A stretch of DNA of 64,000 bases from a bacterium (GCA_028824415.1 JAPPDX010000134.1:13175-77174), one strand, 5' to 3'. Positions 19,371-30,117 are shown, counted from the stretch's first letter. The notes: generated by a model from the sequence alone, not told the origin. Translations and numbers: made by a program.

Positions 19371-20408
19371 CTACTCAGCAGTCTCCCAACCCTCCGCCGG
19401 GGGTCCGAACGGCAGGACGTGGCAGGCCACCCGGTGCGGCCCGTCGTCGGGTGCGAGCGCCGGGTCGTCGGTCTCGCAGACGTCGGTGGCGTAGGGGCAG
19501 CGGGTCCGGAACCGGCACCCCGACGGGATGTCGAGCGGCGAGGGAATGTCCCCCGAGATTGGGGTGGTCTCGTCGGCTGCGCCGAGCGTGTAGGGATCGG
19601 GATGGGCGTCGAGCAGGGCCCTCGTGTACGGATGCCGGGGGGTTCTGAAGACAGCGTCAACCGGGCCTTCCTCGACGATCCGCCCGAGGTACATGATGGC
19701 GACGCGGTCGGCGACGTGGGAGACGACGGCCAGGTCGTGGGCGATGAAGATCATCGCCAGACCCAACTCGTCGCTCAGTTGGGCGAACAGATTCAGGATC
19801 TGGGCCTGGATCGACACATCCAGCGCGCTCACGGCCTCATCGGCGATCAGCACCTCGGGTTGCACGGCGAGGGCTCGGGCGATGGCGGCCCGCTGGCGCT
19901 GACCGCCGCTCAGAGCCCGGGGACGGCGCCCGGTGAACGATCGCGGCAACCCGACCACTTCGAGGAGGTCGCCGACGAAGTCGTTCCCCTCGCGACCGTG
20001 CACCTTGCCGGCTTCCTCGATGGCAGCCCCGATCGACATCTGCGGGTTCAGCGAGGTGAACGGATCCTGGTAGATCATCTGCATCCGCCCGTGGAGGTCG
20101 CGGCGCATCTGCCCCGTGGCCTCGGTCACGTCGACCCCGTCGAAGTGGATGCTCCCCTGATTGGGTCGGTACAGGGCGACCAGGCAGCGGGCCAGGGTGC
20201 TCTTCCCGCTGCCTGATTCGCCGACGATTCCGAGTACCTCGTTCGGCAGCAACTGCAACGAGACGCCGTCGACGGCGTGAACGCGCTCCCGTGGATTCCG
20301 GCGAATCACGTCGATCGGCGAGCGCGGGACGGGGAACCACTTCTCGAGCGCCTCCACAACGAGAATCGGATCGCCGTTGCGGGCACCGTCGGGCGCTTGC
20401 GTGCTCAT
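19371..20408 (-). CDS. Oligopeptide/dipeptide ABC ATP-binding protein (OppF/DppF)
   Basis: GESGSGKST, LSGGQRQR, IADE, HPYT, C-terminal CRFRTRCP. Confidence 0.93.
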   Translation of the reverse strand: MSTQAPDGARNGDPILVVEALEKWFPVPRSPIDVIRRNPRERVHAVDGVSLQLLPNEVLGIVGESGSGKSTLARCLVALYRPNQGSIHFDGVDVTEATGQMRRDLHGRMQMIYQDPFTSLNPQMSIGAAIEEAGKVHGREGNDFVGDLLEVVGLPRSFTGRRPRALSGGQRQRAAIARALAVQPEVLIADEAVSALDVSIQAQILNLFAQLSDELGLAMIFIAHDLAVVSHVADRVAIMYLGRIVEEGPVDAVFRTPRHPYTRALLDAHPDPYTLGAADETTPISGDIPSPLDIPSGCRFRTRCPYATDVCETDDPALAPDDGPHRVACHVLPFGPPAEGWETAE

Positions 20409-21427
20409 GATTCGCGCCTCGCGAACGGGCACGCCGAGAGCTGCGTCGGCGAGACGGCGGTCAGTTCCATGGACACCTCTGCACAGTCGTGACGGGCAAG
20501 CGGGCAGCGAGGGGCGAAGGGGCAACCCTCGGGCAGCTTCAACAGGTCCGGCGGCTGGCCCGGAATGGTCCGCAGTTCCGTTCGATCCTCCGGGGTGAGT
20601 TGCGGCATGGCGTCGATGAGTGCCCGCGTGTACGGGTGGTCCGGGCTGCTGAACAGCACGTCGGTGGGAGCCACCTCTACGATGCGCCCGGCGTACATGA
20701 CCGCCACACGATCCGCGGCGGTGCCGATGACCCCCATGTCGTGCGAGACCAGGATCATCGACATGTTCCGCTCACGGCGCAGGTCCTCGAGGAGCTGCAG
20801 CACCTGATCCTGGATCGTGACATCGAGGGCGGTCGTGGGCTCGTCGGCCAGCAGCAGGCGGGGCTCACCGGCCAGCGCCATGGCAATCATGACGCGCTGA
20901 CGCATGCCGCCGCTCATCTCGTGCGGGAACGCCGACATGCGCCTGTCCGGCGCGGGGATTCCCACCCGCTCGAGTAACTCGATGCTCCTGGCGCGTGCCG
21001 CGGCCCGGCCCAGTCCGGCGTTGAGACGCAGGACCTCGGAGATCTGATGGCCGATCGTGAAGACGGGATTCAGAGCGCTGGCAGGGTCTTGGAAGATCAT
21101 GGCGATCTCGCGGGCCCGGAGTTCGCGCATCTCGGTGCGGTTGAACTCCAGCACGTTGCGCCCGTCGTAGTCGATGCGTCCGCCGAGCACCGCTCCCGGA
21201 TGGGGAACCATCCCCACGATGGCGCGGCACGTGACGCTCTTGCCGGACCCCGACTCGCCCACGAGGCCGAGCACCTCGCCCTGACCGACGGTCAGATGCA
21301 CGTCATTGGCAGCGAGGACGATGCCCTCCAGCGACGGGAAGCCGATGCGGAGCCTCTTGATGGTGAGCAGCGGCGGGGCCGAGGTCTCCGCCTGGTCGGC
21401 GCGGAGTGCCCCCTCGGTCGACGTCAT
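20405..21427 (-). CDS. Oligopeptide/dipeptide ABC ATP-binding protein (OppD/DppD)
   Basis: GESGSGKS, MSGGMRQR, LADEPTTALD, HPYT, CPFAPRCP. Confidence 0.93.
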   Translation of the reverse strand: MTSTEGALRADQAETSAPPLLTIKRLRIGFPSLEGIVLAANDVHLTVGQGEVLGLVGESGSGKSVTCRAIVGMVPHPGAVLGGRIDYDGRNVLEFNRTEMRELRAREIAMIFQDPASALNPVFTIGHQISEVLRLNAGLGRAAARARSIELLERVGIPAPDRRMSAFPHEMSGGMRQRVMIAMALAGEPRLLLADEPTTALDVTIQDQVLQLLEDLRRERNMSMILVSHDMGVIGTAADRVAVMYAGRIVEVAPTDVLFSSPDHPYTRALIDAMPQLTPEDRTELRTIPGQPPDLLKLPEGCPFAPRCPLARHDCAEVSMELTAVSPTQLSACPFARRES

Positions 21428-22326
21428 CCGACCACCCCGAACTTCTGGCCGAGGCGGTCGGCCAGCGAATCGCCGATCATGCTGAAGCCGGCTCCCAGGA
21501 CCACGATCACCACGCCCGGCAGCGTCGTGACCCACCACGCCTGCTGGAGGAACGACTGGCCGTCGGCAACCATCGCGCCCAGCTCCGCCGTCGGTGCCTG
21601 CACGCCGACCCCCAGGTACGAGAGGCCCGCCAGCAGCAGCAGGTTCAGGACGATGTCGGCCATCGAGAACACGAGGTTCGACCTGATCAGGTTGGGAACG
21701 GCATGCCGGAGGATGACGCGCCGCGGCGAGTAGCCCAGCGTGCGCGCCGCGAGGATGAACTGCTGCTCGCGCAAGACCAGCATGTCGCCCCTCGTGAGCC
21801 GGGCGTACAAGGTCCAGCCCACGGCAAGGACGCCGATGTACACCCCCTTCAGGCCGGGCCCCAGGATCGCCACCACGGCGATCACCAGCACGATGAACGG
21901 GAAGGCGATGAAGGCGTCGATCACGCGGACCGTGATGGCGTCCACCCATCCCCGGAAGTAGCCGGCGAGCGCCCCGACGATCATCCCGAAGACCATCGGC
22001 ACGTAGGTGATGATGAGCACCACCACCAGGTCGAGCCGGATGGCGTAGAGCGTGCGGGTGAAGATGTCCCGACCGAACGGGTCGGTCCCCATCCAGTGCT
22101 TCCCGGACGGGCTCAGCAGGCGCTGGGTCAGGTCGACGGCATTGGGGTCGAAAGGAGCGATCAGAGATGCGAAGAAGCCGGCGACCGCGAGCGCTCCCAC
22201 GATGACGATCCCGACGCCCAGGGTGACGTTCGACCAGCGCCGCTCCGCCTGGGCCTGGCGCAGCAGGGTGGCGGCCTCCCCCCGGAGACCCACGGCACGG
22301 CGGCCCGCCCAGGCGAGGGTCCTCAT
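21424..22326 (-). CDS. Peptide ABC permease (OppC/DppC)
   Basis: HWMGTDPFGRD, EAA-loop FILAARTLG, LSYLGVG. Confidence 0.92.
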   Translation of the reverse strand: MRTLAWAGRRAVGLRGEAATLLRQAQAERRWSNVTLGVGIVIVGALAVAGFFASLIAPFDPNAVDLTQRLLSPSGKHWMGTDPFGRDIFTRTLYAIRLDLVVVLIITYVPMVFGMIVGALAGYFRGWVDAITVRVIDAFIAFPFIVLVIAVVAILGPGLKGVYIGVLAVGWTLYARLTRGDMLVLREQQFILAARTLGYSPRRVILRHAVPNLIRSNLVFSMADIVLNLLLLAGLSYLGVGVQAPTAELGAMVADGQSFLQQAWWVTTLPGVVIVVLGAGFSMIGDSLADRLGQKFGVVG

Positions 22327-23270
22327 TCGGCGGCCATCCCCGCTCGCACCCGCGGGTCGACAACGGCGTAGGCGGCGTCGGCGAGGATGTTGACGAGGAT
22401 GACCATCGCCCCGAAGACGAGGATCAGCCCCTGGATCACGGGATAGTCCCTGTTGAGCACCGATTGCACCAGCAATGCCCCGAGACCCGGCACCTGGAAG
22501 ACCACCTCCACGATCACCGTGCCGCTGATGAGGAAACCGATGTTGATGGAGAGAACGCTGATCAGTGGCACCAAGGCGTTGCGCATGGCCAGCTTGCCCA
22601 CCACCCGGCTCTCCCGGTAGCCCCGGGAGCGGGCGGCCTCCACATAGTCGCTGTCGATCGCCTCGATGAGACTCGAGCGCAGCGTCCGCATCAGCTGCGG
22701 GGCGAGATAGAGGCCGATCGTGAGCGCCGGCAGCGTGAGGTGCAGAAGGATCCCGCCGAACCCTTCCCCGTACCCCCCGCTGGGCAACACATCGAGCTGG
22801 ATGGCGAACAGCAGGATCAGCATCAGGCCCAGCCAGAACTGCGGCATGGCGAAGGACACCATGCTCGTCAGCCGGACGACCTGGTCGGGCACGCGGTTGC
22901 GGTAGATGGCCGAGAGGGCGCCGAGCGGCACCGAGATGATCAGCGCCAGGACAGTGGCGTACAGGAGCAGGTAGACCGAGGGCAGGAGCCGGTCGAACAC
23001 GATGTCGTTCACGGGCGCCCGCTTGATGATGGACGAACCCAGGTCGCCCTGGAAGGCGCGCTCCACGAACTGCACGATCTGCTGGCCCATCGGGAGGTCG
23101 AGCCCGAGATCCTCGTTGACGGCGGCGATGTTCTCGGGTGTCGCCTGGAGACCCAGCATCTGCACGACCGGGTCGCCCGGTATGAGCCGGATGACCAGGA
23201 ACGACACGAGGATGATGGCGGCCAGCACCCAGATGCTGTGCAGCAGCCGCCGCCCTAGGAACCCCCACAT
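22323..23270 (-). CDS. Peptide ABC permease (OppB/DppB)
   Basis: PGDPV, GDLGSS, YVEAARSRG, RDYPVIQG. Confidence 0.93.
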   Translation of the reverse strand: MWGFLGRRLLHSIWVLAAIILVSFLVIRLIPGDPVVQMLGLQATPENIAAVNEDLGLDLPMGQQIVQFVERAFQGDLGSSIIKRAPVNDIVFDRLLPSVYLLLYATVLALIISVPLGALSAIYRNRVPDQVVRLTSMVSFAMPQFWLGLMLILLFAIQLDVLPSGGYGEGFGGILLHLTLPALTIGLYLAPQLMRTLRSSLIEAIDSDYVEAARSRGYRESRVVGKLAMRNALVPLISVLSINIGFLISGTVIVEVVFQVPGLGALLVQSVLNRDYPVIQGLILVFGAMVILVNILADAAYAVVDPRVRAGMAAE

Positions 23271-23294
23271 ACGCGAAAACGACCTCCCGGCGTG

Positions 23295-23325
23295 GGTCGG
23301 GTCCCCGTGGCACGGGGACCCGACC
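23295..23325. terminator. Stem-loop downstream of peptide SBP gene
   Basis: GGTCGGGTCCCCGT-GGC-ACGGGGACCCGACC perfect 14-bp stem. Confidence 0.55.
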
Positions 23326-23365: not shown

Positions 23366-25330
23366 TCAGTTACTGAGCCAGACGTCCTCGAGGTCCCACC
23401 AGCCGTTGGGCACGACCCGGAATCCCTCGACGTGGTCGGCCACCGCGTGCACGGTGGGCAGGAAGAACAGCGTCACCCAGGGCGCCTCCTCCATGGCGAT
23501 CCGCTGCACCTCCGGCCAGAGTTCGGCCCGGATCACCTCGTCGGTCGTGAAGGCGGCCTCCTCGGTGAAGCGTTCGAGTTCGTCCGGGATCTCCCAGCCG
23601 GTGAAGAAGCCGGCGAGGATGTTGCTCGGATCCGTGTCGTAGAACAGCAGCGCCACCTCGTCGGGCACGACCACGTCGGAGGTGAACTTCGGCAGCGGCA
23701 CGCCCGACTCGTACTCCATCGTGAAGAAGCGGTCGCCGAACAGCGTGCCGGTGTCGACCTCCTCGATGGACAGGTTCACGCCGATCTGCGCCCAGTCCGC
23801 CTGGAGAATGGTCCCGAGCTGCTCGTGGGCCGTCGAGCCCGACGGGTAGATGTAGGCGAGGTCGAAGCCGTCGGGCATCGACGACGCCGCCATGAGCTCC
23901 TTTGCCCGCTCGATGTCGTAGAAGTACGCCGGCAGGGTGTCGTAGTCGGAGTGGTACAGCGCCTTGGGGATCATGCTGTTGGCGATCTCGCCGACGCCCC
24001 CGTACACCGCCTCGTTGATGGCCGCCTTGTTGGTGGCGTAGTTCAACGCCTGGCGCACGCCGATCTCGCCGAGCGGCGGGACGGTGTGATTCAGGAACAC
24101 GCCCTCATAGCGGACGATGTCGGCGACGTGGATGCTGAAGCCCTCGCTGAGGGCCAGGTCGGGGATCTGCGTCCACGGCACGCCCTCGACAAGGTCGGCA
24201 TCGCCGCCCTGGATGCGCAGGATGCGGGCGTTGTCGTCGGGGATGTAGTCGAACCGGATCTCGTCGAGATACGGCTTGCCCTCCTCCCAGTAGTACTCGT
24301 TGCGCTCGAGGGTGATGTGCGAGCCGGCCACCCATTCCTTCACCTTGAACGGGCCGGTGCCTAGGGGGTTCATCCAGTGGTCGTCGCCCTCGGCCAGCAC
24401 GGCGGCCTTGTTGATGATCGATGCGGGGAACACCGAGATGTTCTCGAGGAACGCACCGACCGGGCGGTCCAGGTTCACCTGCACGGTCTGGTCATCGATG
24501 ATGTCCACGCTCTCGACCCCGACGCCGAGGCTCGGGATGTTCACGCTGATCGTCGGGTCCGCGAAACGCTCCAGTGAGAACTGCACGTCCTCGGCCGTGA
24601 CCGGCTCGCCGTTGGAGAACCTGGCGTTGTCACGGATGTGGAACGTCCAGGTCATGCCGTCGGGACTGGAACTCCACTCGTCGGCGATCCCCGGGCCCAC
24701 GTTCGGGAGAGTGTCGGGGTCGGCTTCCACGAGAGTGTTGTAGATCTGCACCCGCACGAAGATGGACCCGTTGTCGGCCACCCCCGCCGGGTCGAGGTTC
24801 TGCGTCTCGAAGAACCGGGCGAAGGTGAGCGACCCACCGCGCTGCGGGCCGCCCGCAGGCGCGGCGGCCTCTGCGGCTGCCGCTTCCGCCTCGGCACGCG
24901 CCACATCGGCTTCTGCCTGCGCGGCGGCGGCCTCGGCCTGCGCGGCGGCGGCCTCCGAGAGCGCCTCGTCCGCGGCGGCTTGCGCGGCGGCGAGGGCGGC
25001 TTCGGCGGCAGCCATGGCCTCCACGTTGCCCTCGGCGGTGGCCTGTGCCAGTGCAGCAGCGGCGGCTGCTGCGTCGGCGGCGGCCAGGGCCGCCGCGGCG
25101 TCCGCCGCCGCACTCTGGACCGCTGCCCCGGTGGCCCGAGCTTCGGCCATGGCGTCCGCCGCATCCGCGGATGCGCTGCTTGCCTCCGCCATTGCGGCAT
25201 CAGCGGATGCTGCCGCCGCGTCGGCGGCCTCCGAAGTGGAGTCATCGGCCGCGCACGAGGCGGCGATGAGCATCGTCACGGCACCGAGCACGATCAACCG
25301 CCTCCAAGAGCGGCCGTGTCGCGAATTCAT
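23366..25330 (-). CDS. Peptide ABC substrate-binding lipoprotein (SBP family 5) with N-terminal Ala-rich stalk
   Basis: Lipobox IAASC; ~135 aa Ala-rich region, then RGGSLTF..NLDP, WTFHIR, GTGPFK. Confidence 0.92.
   Translation of the reverse strand: MNSRHGRSWRRLIVLGAVTMLIAASCAADDSTSEAADAAAASADAAMAEASSASADAADAMAEARATGAAVQSAAADAAAALAAADAAAAAAALAQATAEGNVEAMAAAEAALAAAQAAADEALSEAAAAQAEAAAAQAEADVARAEAEAAAAEAAAPAGGPQRGGSLTFARFFETQNLDPAGVADNGSIFVRVQIYNTLVEADPDTLPNVGPGIADEWSSSPDGMTWTFHIRDNARFSNGEPVTAEDVQFSLERFADPTISVNIPSLGVGVESVDIIDDQTVQVNLDRPVGAFLENISVFPASIINKAAVLAEGDDHWMNPLGTGPFKVKEWVAGSHITLERNEYYWEEGKPYLDEIRFDYIPDDNARILRIQGGDADLVEGVPWTQIPDLALSEGFSIHVADIVRYEGVFLNHTVPPLGEIGVRQALNYATNKAAINEAVYGGVGEIANSMIPKALYHSDYDTLPAYFYDIERAKELMAASSMPDGFDLAYIYPSGSTAHEQLGTILQADWAQIGVNLSIEEVDTGTLFGDRFFTMEYESGVPLPKFTSDVVVPDEVALLFYDTDPSNILAGFFTGWEIPDELERFTEEAAFTTDEVIRAELWPEVQRIAMEEAPWVTLFFLPTVHAVADHVEGFRVVPNGWWDLEDVWLSN
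24933..25051 (-). repeat. Left arm of 119-bp inverted repeat (stalk coding sequence)
   Basis: Reverse complement matches 25900-26018 with 6 mismatches by manual alignment; encodes LAQATAEGNVEAMAAAEAALAAAQAAADEALSEAAAAQAE. Confidence 0.9.
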
Positions 25331-25587
25331 AGTGATCTCCTTCCGCCAACGCCATAGGCGATGCGGAGGAGCGCCTCCCCCCGTCGGCGCCGGCGATCAG
25401 CACTGTAGTGCAACGCCCTTTTCACTGCTCATGGGTAACCGCCGGGCTCGCCCGGGGCGGAGGTGACCATTTCCCAGGCGGCGTGACACCGGATACTGTG
25501 CGCGGCCAATCCCCCTGATGCTGCATCGCGTGTCGGCTCCCCGGCGGCTCTCCCGGCGTCGGGTCAGATACCAGCATCGGAGGACCT

Positions 25588-27366
25588 ATGAGGTACTTGA
25601 AGAAGAGCGGTGCTCTCGCGTCACTGCTCGCACTAACGCTCTTGGCAGCGGCGTGCGCGGCCGATGACGCCGCGTCGGAGGCCGCCGACGCGGCGTCCGA
25701 CGCTGCCGACGCGGCTCTGGCGGAGGCGAGAGGTGCATCAGCCGACGCCGCCGACGCCATGGCCGAGGCCCAGGCAACCGCTGCCGCTGCCCAGAGTGCG
25801 GCGGCGGACGCCGCCACCGGGATCGCCGATGCCGCAGCCGCGGATGCGGCCGCTGCGGCGGCACTCGCCGCGGCGGAGGCGGCGCAGGCGGCAGCCGACC
25901 TGGCGCAGGCCACCGCCGAGGGCAACGTGGAGGCCATGGCCTCCGCCGAAGCCGCCCTCGCCGCCGCGCAAGCCGCCGCGGACGAGGCGCTGTCGGAGGC
26001 CGCAGCCGCCCAGGCCGAAGCTGACGAAGCACGAGATGCAGCCGCCGCGGCCCAGGCAGAGGCCGAAGCGGCTCAGGCAGAGGCCGACCAGGCGCGGGCA
26101 GAAGCCGAGGCGGCGCGCGAGGAGGCCGCAGCCGCCCAGGCCGAGGCCGCAGCCGCGGCCGGTCCGGCAGCGGGCTCTATCGAGTTGGACTTCCTCGTGT
26201 TCGAGACCCCGAACCTGCCGGCGGAGTTCTGGGACGACGCCATCGCCCGCACGGTGGCCGATTTCCCGCAGTTCAAGATCAACAAGATCGTGGCACCCGA
26301 CCTCAACATCGGCGACTTCCTCAAGCAGCTGGCAGCCACCGACCAGCTCCCCGACGTCATGATGAGCAACTTCTCCACGGCGGAGTTCATCGCCGAGGGT
26401 CTGCTCCTGCCGTTCGAGCCGGAGGACCTGGAGCGATTCATCGACCCGGTCGGCCTCGGATACACCGACGGCAAGCAGTACGCGCTGCCGATGCTGACGG
26501 TCTACGAGTCAGGCGTCTTCTACAACAAGGACATGTTCGAGGCGGCGGGCATCACCGCCGAGCCGGAGACTTGGGACGAGTTCATCAATGCGGCTCTGGC
26601 CATCGCCGCATCGGGTGAGACGCCGTTCGTCATCGGCGGCGCCGGCGCTGACGCTTGGGCCGCGGGCTGGCCGATCATGAACCTGGCCTCCCTCAACGTG
26701 ACCGGCGCGGACCCGACGTTCAACCAGAAGCTGCGCACCGGTGAGGCCAGTTTCACCGACCCGATCTTCGTGGACGCACTGCGGCCGTACGAGCAGATGG
26801 TGGCCGCAGGATGGCTGACAGGTGAGGAGCTGAACCTCGGCTACGCCGACCTGCAGCAGACGTTCCTCGACGGCGCCGCGGCGATGTACCCGATGGGCAG
26901 CTTCTTCGCCGGTGCGGTGCCGATGGACCATCCGTTCGAGATCGGCATCTTCCCGATGCCCACCCTCGACGGCACCAAGCGCCTCGCCACCTACACGTCG
27001 GGCGGACCGGCCATCTCGGCACGCACCCCCGACCCGGAGGCGGCGCGGCTGTTCTCGGTGGAGTTCGCCACGAACGTCGAGACGAACCTCGACGATCTGA
27101 TCCGCGACGCGCACATCGCCAACAACAAGCTGTTCGTGCTTCCCAGCGACGTGGAACTGCACCCGCTGATCACCGAGGTCATCGAGATCCTGGCCGATCA
27201 GTCGGCCAGGCAGGTCGCCTTCTACACCTTCGAGGTCGGCGACGACGCCCTCGTGGCGGGTATGCAGAACGAATTGTGGATCCAGGCGCAGGAGATGCTG
27301 GCCGGCAGGTCGGCGGAGGAGGCCGCACAGGCCCTCCAGGACGCCTGGAACGACCTCTCCGGCTAG
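25588..27366 (+). CDS. Carbohydrate ABC substrate-binding lipoprotein (SBP family 1) with N-terminal Ala-rich stalk
   Basis: Lipobox LAAAC; ~165 aa Ala-rich region, then LPDV, YALP, FYNKDMFEAAGI, PETWDEF. Confidence 0.92.
   Translation: MRYLKKSGALASLLALTLLAAACAADDAASEAADAASDAADAALAEARGASADAADAMAEAQATAAAAQSAAADAATGIADAAAADAAAAAALAAAEAAQAAADLAQATAEGNVEAMASAEAALAAAQAAADEALSEAAAAQAEADEARDAAAAAQAEAEAAQAEADQARAEAEAAREEAAAAQAEAAAAAGPAAGSIELDFLVFETPNLPAEFWDDAIARTVADFPQFKINKIVAPDLNIGDFLKQLAATDQLPDVMMSNFSTAEFIAEGLLLPFEPEDLERFIDPVGLGYTDGKQYALPMLTVYESGVFYNKDMFEAAGITAEPETWDEFINAALAIAASGETPFVIGGAGADAWAAGWPIMNLASLNVTGADPTFNQKLRTGEASFTDPIFVDALRPYEQMVAAGWLTGEELNLGYADLQQTFLDGAAAMYPMGSFFAGAVPMDHPFEIGIFPMPTLDGTKRLATYTSGGPAISARTPDPEAARLFSVEFATNVETNLDDLIRDAHIANNKLFVLPSDVELHPLITEVIEILADQSARQVAFYTFEVGDDALVAGMQNELWIQAQEMLAGRSAEEAAQALQDAWNDLSG
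25900..26018 (+). repeat. Right arm of 119-bp inverted repeat (stalk coding sequence)
   Basis: See left arm; same peptide, same reading frame. Confidence 0.9.
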
Positions 27367-27376
27367 ACCAACCAAC

Positions 27377-28339
27377 TTGACTTCCGCCGTCAGGGGCTCC
27401 CTCCTGCCGACGCGGAGTCGCGCCGAGCGCCCCTCCGGCCGCCGGGCCGGAGGGCGCCGCCGGCCGCCCGGCGCGGGGCGGCGCAGCTTCGGGCTGATGG
27501 CGATGGGTGCGCCCACCACGGCGCTGTTCGCAGCGCTGGTGGTCGTGCCCATCGGCGTCACCGTCCACTACAGCCTCAACGACGTGAACTTCCTGCGGGA
27601 CGAGATCTCGTGGGTGGGCTTCAGCAACTACGCCAAGCTCTGGGAGAGCGGCGATTTCCGCCACGCCCTCTACGTCACGCTGCTGATCGCCGCCGCCTCG
27701 GTGGTGGTCCCCAATGCTCTGGGGCTGCTCTTCGCGGTGCTGCTGGATGCAGGTTCGCGTCTCTACACGACGCTTCGCATCATTCTCTTCGCGCCGTTCG
27801 TGCTGAGTCCGCTGGTCGTGGGACTGACGTTCCGCTGGACGCTGGCCAACGACGGCTCACTGAACAACGCTCTCGAGGCACTCGGGATTCCGGGACCCGA
27901 GTGGATCAGCTCGCCCAATCTTGCGGTCGTGTCCGTGGGGCTGGCGCTGTCGTGGCAGCTGGTCGCCTTCGCCACCGTCCTCTACGTGGCCGCGCTGCGA
28001 GCCATCCCGACCGACCTCTACGAGGCGGCAAGCATCGACGGCGCCTCGGGATACCTGCGGTTCCGGCTCATCACCTGGCCACTCGTCGCCCCGGCTGTGA
28101 CCATCACGACCCTCATCTCCCTCATCTCCGCCCTGAAGCTCTACGACCACGTCGTGGCTCTGACGGGCGGCGGCCCGGGCCGGTCCTCGGAGACCGTTGG
28201 CTTGGCGATCATCCGCGCCGGCTTCACCCAGAACCGCGCCGGCCTGGCCTCGGCGATGGCGGTGCTCCTACTCGTCATCACGGCGGCGACGACGGCCATA
28301 TCGCTGCGGGTTCTGCGTCGCCGCGAAGTGGAGTTGTGA
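27377..28339 (+). CDS. Carbohydrate ABC permease (CUT1, MalF-like)
   Basis: WVGFSNY, EAA loop DLYEAASIDGAS, ITWPL; true start may be ATG near 27497. Confidence 0.9.
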   Translation: MTSAVRGSLLPTRSRAERPSGRRAGGRRRPPGAGRRSFGLMAMGAPTTALFAALVVVPIGVTVHYSLNDVNFLRDEISWVGFSNYAKLWESGDFRHALYVTLLIAAASVVVPNALGLLFAVLLDAGSRLYTTLRIILFAPFVLSPLVVGLTFRWTLANDGSLNNALEALGIPGPEWISSPNLAVVSVGLALSWQLVAFATVLYVAALRAIPTDLYEAASIDGASGYLRFRLITWPLVAPAVTITTLISLISALKLYDHVVALTGGGPGRSSETVGLAIIRAGFTQNRAGLASAMAVLLLVITAATTAISLRVLRRREVEL

Positions 28340-29145
28340 TGCGCCAGGCACGGGCCCTGCTGGCGATCGTCGTCTCGGCGTTCTTCCTGTTCCCCCTGTA
28401 CCTGGTGATCGCCAACGCCTTCAAGACCGACCCGGAGATCCTGCGGTCACCGGCGAGGCCGCCGATCGGACCGACGCTGGACGGCATGTCGGGGGTGCTC
28501 AGCGTCGGGGACGTGACCGGCGGACTGGTGAACTCACTGCTCATTACCGGCTCGACGATCGCCCTGATCATGGTCGTGTCATCGATGCTGGCGTTCGCCC
28601 TCCACATGTCCAACAGTTGGATCAGCAACGCCGTCGGCACCGTCATCCTCTTCGGTCTGATCCTTCCGACACCGGTAATCCTGATACCGGTGTTCCGCGT
28701 ACTGAAGTACATCGGCCTGGAGAACAGCTTCCCGGGCCTCATCCTCTTCCTTTGCGCCTACTACGCCCCGTTCGCGGTACTCGTGTACCGGGGCTTCATG
28801 CGGTCGATCCCGAAGGAACTGGCCGAAGCGGCCTCGATAGACGGCGCCTCCCTGGCATCCATCTACTGGTCGGTGATCCTGCCGCTACTGCGGCCGGCCA
28901 CGGCGAGCGTGCTGGTGATCTGCGGGGTATGGGTGTGGAACGAGTTCCTGCCCCCGCTGGTGCTGTTGGGTCCGCTGCAGGGCAACACGGTCACCGTGGG
29001 GTTGTTCCGGTCGGTCGGGCAGTTCGACGTGAACTACGGGCAACTCTTCAGCTACATGCTCTTCGTGTCGATACCGGTGCTGGTGTTCTACCTGCTGCTG
29101 CAGAGGTACTTCGTCCGCGGCCTCACCGCGGGCGCCACCAAGTGA
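28339..29145 (+). CDS. Carbohydrate ABC permease (CUT1, MalG-like)
   Basis: NAFKT, IPKELAEAASIDGAS, VWNEFL, QRYFVRGLTAGATK. Confidence 0.92.
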   Translation: MRQARALLAIVVSAFFLFPLYLVIANAFKTDPEILRSPARPPIGPTLDGMSGVLSVGDVTGGLVNSLLITGSTIALIMVVSSMLAFALHMSNSWISNAVGTVILFGLILPTPVILIPVFRVLKYIGLENSFPGLILFLCAYYAPFAVLVYRGFMRSIPKELAEAASIDGASLASIYWSVILPLLRPATASVLVICGVWVWNEFLPPLVLLGPLQGNTVTVGLFRSVGQFDVNYGQLFSYMLFVSIPVLVFYLLLQRYFVRGLTAGATK

Positions 29146-29250
29146 GCGTGGCCGTGCACAGCCCATCACGTGCTGGAGGCAGGCGGCCCCGTCGCATCGT
29201 CCAAACCCGTGAACGCCATCATCGACGACCATCATTCGGAGGCCGAGACC

Positions 29251-30117
29251 ATGTCTGAGACCGCCACCCGACTCATCGACACCCATCTCCACCAGTGGGA
29301 CCTCGACCAGTGCGACTACGCCTGGCTGGATGCCGACCTGCCACCGGCGTTCCACCAGCTCCGCCGAACGTTCCTCGTCGACGAGGCGCGGGAACACATC
29401 GAGGCCACGGGCGTGACCGAGGCGATTCTGGTGCAGGCCGAGAACAGTCTCGCCGACACCGAGGCGATGCTCGCCGTGACGGCGTCGCAGAACCGGGTGG
29501 TCGCGGTGGTCGGCTGGTTCGACATGCTCGACCCCGAGAGGGCATCCGCCGCGCTCGATGCCCTGCAGGCCTCCGGACCGGTCGTGGGGATCCGTCACCT
29601 GATCCACGACGAACCCGATCCCGACTGGGTGCTGCAACCCGCGGTCATCGAGAGCCTCCGCGAGCTGGCCCGACACGGGATGGCCTACGACTTCGTGGGC
29701 GTGCAACTGCGACACCTCGAGCACGTGCCCACGCTGGCGAGCGCGGTCGGGGATCTCCGTATCGTGATCGACCATCTCAACAAGCCGCCCATCGGCACCG
29801 CCGACTTCTCACGCTGGGTGGAGTTGATGGGAGCCGCGGCGAGCTTCTCGAACGTCTTCGCAAAGGTCTCCGGGCTGCACAACGTCACCCCACACGCCGA
29901 CTGGACTCCCGACGACCTGCGGGGCGCCTTCGATGTGGCCCTCGAGTCGTTCGGTTCGGGCCGTCTGATGTTCGGCAGCGACTGGCCCGTCTGCAACGTC
30001 GGCGGGGGCTACCGCCGCCAAGCCGAGGCCTTCGAGGCGCTCATCGGGTCGCTGGACGCCGAGGCCGCCGCGGACCTGCGCTGGCGTTCCGCCTGCCGGG
30101 CCTACGCCCTGGACTGA
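29251..30117 (+). CDS. Amidohydrolase_2, L-fuconolactonase-like
   Basis: IDTHLHQW, ILVQA, VGIRH, VIDHLNKP, KVSGL, MFGSDWPVC. Confidence 0.85.
   Translation: MSETATRLIDTHLHQWDLDQCDYAWLDADLPPAFHQLRRTFLVDEAREHIEATGVTEAILVQAENSLADTEAMLAVTASQNRVVAVVGWFDMLDPERASAALDALQASGPVVGIRHLIHDEPDPDWVLQPAVIESLRELARHGMAYDFVGVQLRHLEHVPTLASAVGDLRIVIDHLNKPPIGTADFSRWVELMGAAASFSNVFAKVSGLHNVTPHADWTPDDLRGAFDVALESFGSGRLMFGSDWPVCNVGGGYRRQAEAFEALIGSLDAEAAADLRWRSACRAYALD

Follow-up and report, generated by a model that had tools for sequence, protein, structure and literature searches.

A 119-bp inverted repeat shared by two divergent ABC transporter operons probably derives from a genus-specific lipoprotein stalk module and gene conversion

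The tufA and tufB genes of Salmonella and Escherichia coli are kept alike by RecA-type exchange, and inversion between the two copies is possible but rare. Inverted repeats are also the hallmark of site-specific invertible switches, such as fimS, the Hin/H-segment system, the promoters of Bacteroides polysaccharide loci and the Type I hsdS genes, while the vsp, vlp and vpma loci of Mycoplasma form modular families of variable lipoproteins. Here we analyzed a 119-bp inverted repeat found within a stretch of 64,000 nucleotides (hereafter, the window) from a bacterial genome (GCA_028824415.1, JAPPDX010000134.1:13175-77174). The two arms of the repeat lie inside two neighboring, divergently transcribed genes, P1 and P2, which encode solute-binding lipoproteins of ATP-binding cassette (ABC) transporters. 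A first-pass annotation of the window had proposed that recombination between the arms could swap the promoters of the two operons. Our results indicate instead that the repeat is, probably, the most conserved stretch of a modular protein element and a by-product of gene conversion between two of its copies, and not a regulatory device.

The arms are reverse complements of each other with exactly 6 mismatches over 119 nt, as the first-pass annotation had counted. Direct alignment returned 113/119 identical bases (95% identity), including two uninterrupted stretches of 49 and 35 nt. Both arms are read in frame and encode the same peptide of 39-40 residues, LAQATAEGNVEAMA(A/S)AEAALAAAQAAADEALSEAAAAQAEA, in which the A/S position is the sole difference. 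The similarity is not confined to this segment, since a repeat search extended the inverted pair to 247 nt at 81% and detected a second, offset inverted pair (25030-25271 and 25638-25879) at 74%. The regions coding for the stalks of the two proteins, namely the segments that separate the lipidated cysteine from the binding domain, are therefore homologous along their whole length.

P1 and P2 both have the features of ABC solute-binding lipoproteins, with a lipobox cysteine, a binding domain (PF00496 and PF01547, respectively) and transporter genes alongside. Because their neighbors are permeases and ATPases, the two genes head two divergent ABC operons (Table 1). The flanks of the tract that appears to have been converted are unrelated, as the binding domains, or heads, belong to different Pfam families, and no sequence similarity is detectable between the SBP_bac_5 head of P1 and the SBP_bac_1 head of P2. 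Their initial description as unrelated folds was nonetheless overstated, given that both are Pfam families of the periplasmic-binding-protein type.

The window lies on contig C60 of a metagenome-assembled genome of 3.19 Mb, composed of 138 contigs with 69.5% GC. When used as a DNA query against this genome, the arm produced 38 matches. A six-frame scan identified 27 open frames in which a lipobox is followed by a stretch of 130-210 residues rich in Ala, Glu, Asp and Gln, and 25 of these 27 stalked lipoproteins contain the tip motif [LV]A.[AV]T[AS][ES]G[NS] followed by EAVAAAEAAL. The module is located between the lipobox cysteine and the binding domain, and its tip is the most conserved part in all 25 paralogs. 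The 119-bp repeat covers precisely this tip and ~35 residues at the start of the helix that is predicted to descend from it. The heads carried by the stalks belong to the Pfam families SBP_bac_5, SBP_bac_1/8, Peripla_BP_4, Peripla_BP_6, NMT1, OpuAC, Bmp and Peptidase_M16, and one head matches no Pfam family. Judging from these assignments, most carriers of the module would be ABC solute-binding proteins, drawn from at least seven Pfam families and joined by an M16 peptidase. Alanine makes up 57-58% of the P1 and P2 stalks, which have net charges of -21 and -30; Pfam assigns no family to either of them, and we found no description of the module in Pfam or in the searchable literature.

A profile of 45 columns, built from the alignment of the tip sequences, detected 5-25 copies in each of the 17 genomes sampled from the genus. 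The same profile found none in one genome of a sister genus, in 148 other genomes of the order or in 400 genomes of the phylum (Actinomycetota), and among 1.84 billion representative proteins it reached E <= 1e-3 with only 21. By these searches, the module is private to one uncultured, sponge-associated Acidimicrobiales genus. The first-pass annotation had stated that many equally similar copies would point to a dispersed module rather than to a local switch. The dispersal was confirmed in kind, with ~25 copies per genome, while the equal similarity was not, as the pair in the window remains the closest.

A few of the public proteins matching the tip profile are not lipoproteins. They resemble anti-sigma factors with a single membrane pass, and in them the tip follows a Pro-rich linker. 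One public lipoprotein among the matches has three tandem tips followed by a C-terminal beta-rich domain (P0018, P0021 and P0003 for these variants together). Just upstream of the window, at 6810-8747 of contig C60 (genome G000), lies a third stalked SBP_bac_5 lipoprotein, whose stalk has no Gly-Asn tip (…AARAAEDEAAVAAAEAAL…) and could represent a form in which the turn is missing.

The module is predicted to form an antiparallel hairpin of two alanine-zipper helices, 9-13 nm long, with the residues ATAEGN at the tip. This reading is based on structural models and on heptad-sized indels that are spatially matched in the two arms of the hairpin. AlphaFold2 run on P2 alone returned helices at residues 54-111 and 114-190, with the break at the Gly-Asn of the motif and a predicted local distance difference test (pLDDT) score > 90 around the break. 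When run on the mature P2 stalk with an alignment of 29 sequences, it returned helices at residues 2-89 and 92-168, with a pLDDT of 90.8 and a predicted template modeling (pTM) score of 0.67. In the 25 paralogs, the lengths of the arms before and after the tip range from 59 to 103 residues and vary together (r = 0.83, slope 1.04), with a mean difference of 5 residues (standard deviation (SD) 10). Indels between orthologs measure 7, 14 or 21 amino acids and are positioned opposite each other in the two arms. For example, a deletion of 7 residues near the tip of the N-arm of P2 orthologs is paired with a deletion of 7 residues near the tip of the C-arm, and an insertion of 7 residues near the base with one of 8 residues, also near the base. 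In this comparison, 14 residues are missing from the N-arm and 21 from the C-arm of P1 in the window. Arm-matched indels of this type illustrate cleanly, in natural sequences, how co-variation in length can reveal a fold. What weighs against the hairpin is that it is a prediction and that a Foldseek search of both models against PDB gave no significant E-value, so that its matches can be used for geometry only. In these terms, the best of them are all antiparallel helical hairpins, namely Vipp1 (9eom, TM 0.66), a colicin (7nna, 0.59) and the R-domain of colicin E2 (2ysu, 0.60).

We also considered a straight stalk or spacer of 25 nm and rejected it in view of the arm-matched indels and the AlphaFold2 hairpin. 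The predicted structure would place both lipid anchor and binding head at the base of the hairpin. Since the hairpin folds back on itself, it would not be a simple spacer that moves the head away from the membrane, and our best guess is that it may act as a structural element of the cell envelope or as a bundling device. The Ser/Gly/Pro/Thr/Glu-rich tethers of Gram-positive and actinobacterial lipoproteins occupy the same place, between the lipobox cysteine and the binding domain. These tethers, however, are flexible and disordered spacers, whereas the module, according to the prediction, is folded into a rigid hairpin whose tip is conserved. Long antiparallel two-helix coiled coils with small core residues are also found in alacoil-type hairpins, such as the receptor-binding domains of colicins E2/E3/E9, Vipp1/ESCRT-III and the Ala-rich 'Maxi' antifreeze protein (4KE2). 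Unlike the module, none of them constitutes the N-terminal part of lipoprotein binding proteins, and they have no sequence relationship with it.

Comparison with related genomes showed that the module of P1 has replaced another type of linker. P1 has orthologs in 12 species of the genus, and in 7 of these 12 it is adjoined by P2 in the same divergent layout. In four relatives (G012, G014, G002 and G011; loci L041-L044), the orthologs of P1 retain the same signal peptide and head (87-94% identity) and have a linker of ~60 residues rich in Pro, Thr and Glu in place of the hairpin, with no adjacent P2. The module of P1 was therefore swapped in, and the occurrence of P1 orthologs with either type indicates that linkers behave as interchangeable cassettes. 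P1, P2 and a paralog of P2 on contig C18 share the stalk signature ATGIADAAAADA, and the lineage of the sugar-binding neighbor P2 is the most likely donor of the module. P1 would thus have acquired its copy by replacing the older Pro/Thr/Glu linker.

The sugar operon itself, composed of P2 and its permeases (window 25588-29260), occurs in some genomes and is missing from others at the position separating P1 from the amidohydrolase-like and M81 genes (L034, L041-L044). In the four relatives mentioned above and in G017, the latter genes come directly after P1, while in the window they lie beyond the sugar operon, which is therefore an insertion/deletion polymorphism. The operon is missing from G017, where P1 nevertheless carries a hairpin whose core matches that of G001 exactly. 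Modular variable lipoproteins of Mycoplasma (vsp, vlp and vpma) also have a shared 5' cassette and recombination that moves parts between loci. There, surface antigens vary through recombinases or slippage, whereas the heads in the present case are transport receptors with housekeeping roles, and we saw no phase variation.

Long Pro-rich linkers of the PAPE type take the place of the module in about a dozen further binding lipoproteins of the same genome (contigs C116, C126, C129, C132, C49, C63, C67 and others). Some of these linkers contain exact tandem repeats of 12-16 amino acids, and they form a second class of long tethers.

The two stalks in the window are more similar to each other than any other pair of copies in the genome. 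Among 300 pairs of paralog cores that we compared, the window pair ranks as the closest, with 8/123 mismatches where the median is 36; second comes a pair of tandem OpuAC genes, with 14/123 mismatches. As first proposed, the likeness extends to synonymous sites. Only 17.5% of the codons for identical amino acids differ in the window pair, compared to a median of 53%, which is the lowest synonymous difference among the paralog pairs. In a matrix of 17 core sequences, the window copies of P1 and P2 are mutual nearest sequences, with 8/123 mismatches between them and at least 10 to any ortholog (range also given as 11-23). They also share private states that are absent in the orthologs, both as residues (ALAAAQ) and as codons (GCC GCC CTC GCC GCC GCG CAA). 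The DNA of orthologous stalks differs by 13-25% and that of the heads by 3-11%. Stalk sequences thus change quickly, and a plain lack of change cannot account for the likeness of the two arms.

Private tracts are detectable also in other loci, with 61 nt identical between the arms in L037 and one mismatch in the first 62 nt in the metagenome contig L129. Overall, the longest identical tract between P1 and P2 averages 34.5 nt when both come from one genome and 25.9 nt when they come from different genomes; in 20,000 derangements, the observed value was never reached. The pattern supports short-tract interlocus gene conversion among copies of the module, most frequent between the two neighbors. 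The first-pass annotation had suggested, as a minimal reading, a recent module transfer or gene conversion, and nearest-sequence pairing, private synonymous variants, the permutation test and linker replacement all agree with it. In the scenario that we favor, after P1 acquired the module the two inverted copies would have continued to swap tracts of tens of base pairs by non-crossover homologous recombination. One recent event in this genome would have left the 113/119 identical bases, synonymous sites included.

Low divergence was also observed between unlinked copies: the stalk cores of the two tandem OpuAC genes (contig C65) and of a Bmp gene (contig C71) differ by only 14-16/123 nt despite their different heads. 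The heptad AAAAQ[QE]E occurs in perfect form up to seven times in these stalks.

The locus resembles tufA/tufB in that two inverted copies are more alike than orthologs and would exchange short tracts without crossover. It differs in that only an internal module is homologous between otherwise unrelated genes, in that the copies are ~850 bp apart and head to head, and in that the module family comprises ~25 dispersed copies that could act as donors too. Gene conversion between inverted paralogous segments is a well-known phenomenon, and as a DNA feature the repeat is ordinary. What distinguishes the locus is the module, which would be a private, folded, highly acidic hairpin carried in each genome by some 25 membrane-anchored proteins that are otherwise unrelated, and would evolve through compensating indels of heptad size and through the exchange of cassettes.

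Several observations weigh against conversion between the two stalks, or limit it. When averaged over eight genomes, core mismatches number 18.1 within and 18.7 between genomes, indicating that conversion is episodic and not continuous; continuous concerted evolution of the arms was rejected on this basis. Moreover, the compared genomes are related to one another (for example, L036 and L038 are nearly identical), and the permutation test overstates their independence. The suggested donor of the P1 module is derived from the similarity of a subfamily signature. Finally, part of the similarity between the arms must come from strong purifying selection acting on the tip and from the limited choice of codons in a genome with 70% GC. 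If these forces explained all of it, the likeness would be convergent or ancestral, with few Ala, Glu and Gln codons to choose from and no exchange of DNA. The conservation of the tip in all paralogs and the equal divergence within and between genomes would fit such an explanation. We consider it unlikely, because in other pairs whose peptides are just as similar roughly half of the amino-acid-identical codons differ, because the private synonymous states and ALAAAQ are missing from the orthologs, because orthologous stalks are more diverged than the arms are from each other, and because the permutation test contradicts it. That a short-read assembler collapsed or cross-polished the two copies is extremely improbable. 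The genome is indeed a fragmented metagenome assembly, unitigs break in the repeat and the word depth there is 4-6x that of the flanks. However, the six differences between the arms were retained, the same architecture and private tracts of up to 61 nt occur in relatives assembled into 1-8 contigs, and gene order and orientation agree with seven other genomes.

According to the switch envisaged in the first-pass annotation, RecA-dependent crossovers would flip the ~850-bp spacer and swap promoters, signal peptides and proximal stalks between the operons as heritable regulatory variation. Part of what this requires is in place, since the spacer is bordered by inverted repeats as in an inverton, the arms are in frame with long identical runs, and the signs of gene conversion imply that they do pair and recombine. 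A simulated crossover yielded two intact in-frame chimeric lipoproteins of 665 and 581 amino acids, as anticipated. Yet one of them (Chimera A) combines an N-arm of 88 residues with a C-arm of 55, outside the range of the natural copies with their matched arms, and selection would probably remove it. Comparison among relatives revealed no second orientation, as all 10 independent assemblies, including single-contig genomes, have the same one. The signal peptide MNSRHGR...IAASC is always associated with SBP_bac_5 and MRYLKKSG...AAAC always with SBP_bac_1 (8 species-level genomes and 2 metagenome contigs). The signal-peptide end and the upstream region of P1 are ancestral, being present also in genomes without P2 or the Ala module. 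The ~25 other copies of the module lack any such arrangement. Matches to recombinase families PF00589 and PF00239 occur in the genome and none is on contig C60, in agreement with the earlier remark that no site-specific recombinase is nearby. Some caution comes from the Logan unitigs of the source run, which break inside the repeat arms (X1 records, for instance, end at 24989, 25016-25818 and 25962) and therefore carry no information on orientation. The only public joint between opposite strands (24946 -> 25927; run X3, depth 6.6) lies away from the homologous position (26005), and we tentatively attribute it to a relative or to a paralog whose stalk differs in length; that run contains no more than about one quarter of the words of the locus. 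Altogether, a promoter-swapping switch is not supported and we regard it as very unlikely. A crossover that inverts the spacer presumed to bear the promoters is chemically possible and is fixed in no sampled lineage.

The same conclusion emerges from the comparison with known site-specific switches. In common with fimS, Hin/H-segment, the Bacteroides promoters and Type I hsdS, the locus has inverted repeats around a segment with 5' coding parts and, judging by gene layout, the promoters, and hsdS-type systems further share in-frame repeats whose inversion gives intact chimeras, as in the simulated crossover. Those switches, however, have a dedicated tyrosine or serine recombinase nearby, which contig C60 lacks, and short exact repeats with both orientations in every population, whereas here the repeats are imperfect and a single orientation was found.

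A broader and very improbable reading is that the hairpin-coding DNA acts as a portable recombination cassette. The ~25 copies of the module would share 400-600 bp of in-frame homology immediately after the export signal, and RecA-type crossovers within it could from time to time re-pair the 5' parts (promoter, signal peptide and N-arm) with different binding domains. If so, for P1 and P2 the crossover would be a simple inversion, causing a heritable rewiring of receptor and regulator without a dedicated recombinase. The replacement of the P1 linker, the near-identical OpuAC and Bmp stalks and the presence or absence of the P2 operon would then be its traces.

Table 1. Coordinates of the features of the P1-P2 locus in the window
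Feature	Coordinates	Strand	Evidence or remarks
P1: ABC peptide/nickel-type solute-binding lipoprotein (SBP_bac_5), 654 aa	23366..25330	-	Pfam PF00496, E 6e-91; same-strand permease and ATPase genes downstream
P1 signal peptide and lipobox (MNSRHGRSWRRLIVLGAVTMLIAAS-C26; IAAS-C26)	25253..25330	-	Sequence
P1 alanine-rich module (predicted hairpin), residues 26-158	24857..25255	-	N-arm ~74 aa, tip ATAEGN, C-arm ~55 aa, net charge -21
P2: ABC sugar-type solute-binding lipoprotein (SBP_bac_1), 592 aa	25588..27366	+	Pfam PF01547, E 2.8e-28; permease gene next
P2 signal peptide and lipobox (MRYLKKSGALASLLALTLLAAA-C23; AAA-C23)	25588..25656	+	Sequence
P2 alanine-rich module (predicted hairpin), residues 23-193	25654..26166	+	N-arm 88 aa, tip ATAEGN, C-arm ~78 aa, net charge -30
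Left arm of the inverted repeat	24933..25051	-	P1 hairpin tip and first ~35 residues of the descending helix
Extended left arm	24865..25111	.	247 nt, 81% complementary to 25840-26086
Right arm of the inverted repeat	25900..26018	+	P2 hairpin tip and start of the descending helix
Extended right arm	25840..26086	.	247 nt
Divergent intergenic region, 257 bp	25331..25587	.	Must hold both promoters by gene layout; P1-proximal half conserved across species
Palindrome GGAGGAGCGCCTCC upstream of P1	25365..25378	.	Conserved in G001 and G016; candidate operator or 5' untranslated region (UTR) hairpin
Palindrome GCACTGTAGTGC upstream of P1	25400..25411	.	Conserved in G001 and G016; candidate operator or 5'-UTR structure
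Remaining peptide ABC operon (permeases, two oligo_HPY ATPases)	19371..23313	-	Pfam BPD_transp_1, ABC_tran, oligo_HPY
First permease of the sugar ABC operon	27377..28339	+	Pfam BPD_transp_1

A scan of the spacer returned no sigma-70 consensus promoter and no terminator, and actinobacterial promoters fit that consensus poorly. An Rfam scan of positions 24500-26500 gave no credible match, with only a chance-level hit to isrG (17 bits against a gathering score of 100). Alignment with relatives showed that the ~100 nt upstream of P1, which contain both palindromes, are conserved beside P1. For GGAGGAGCGCCTCC, the conservation is also implied by the conserved upstream translations in related genomes.

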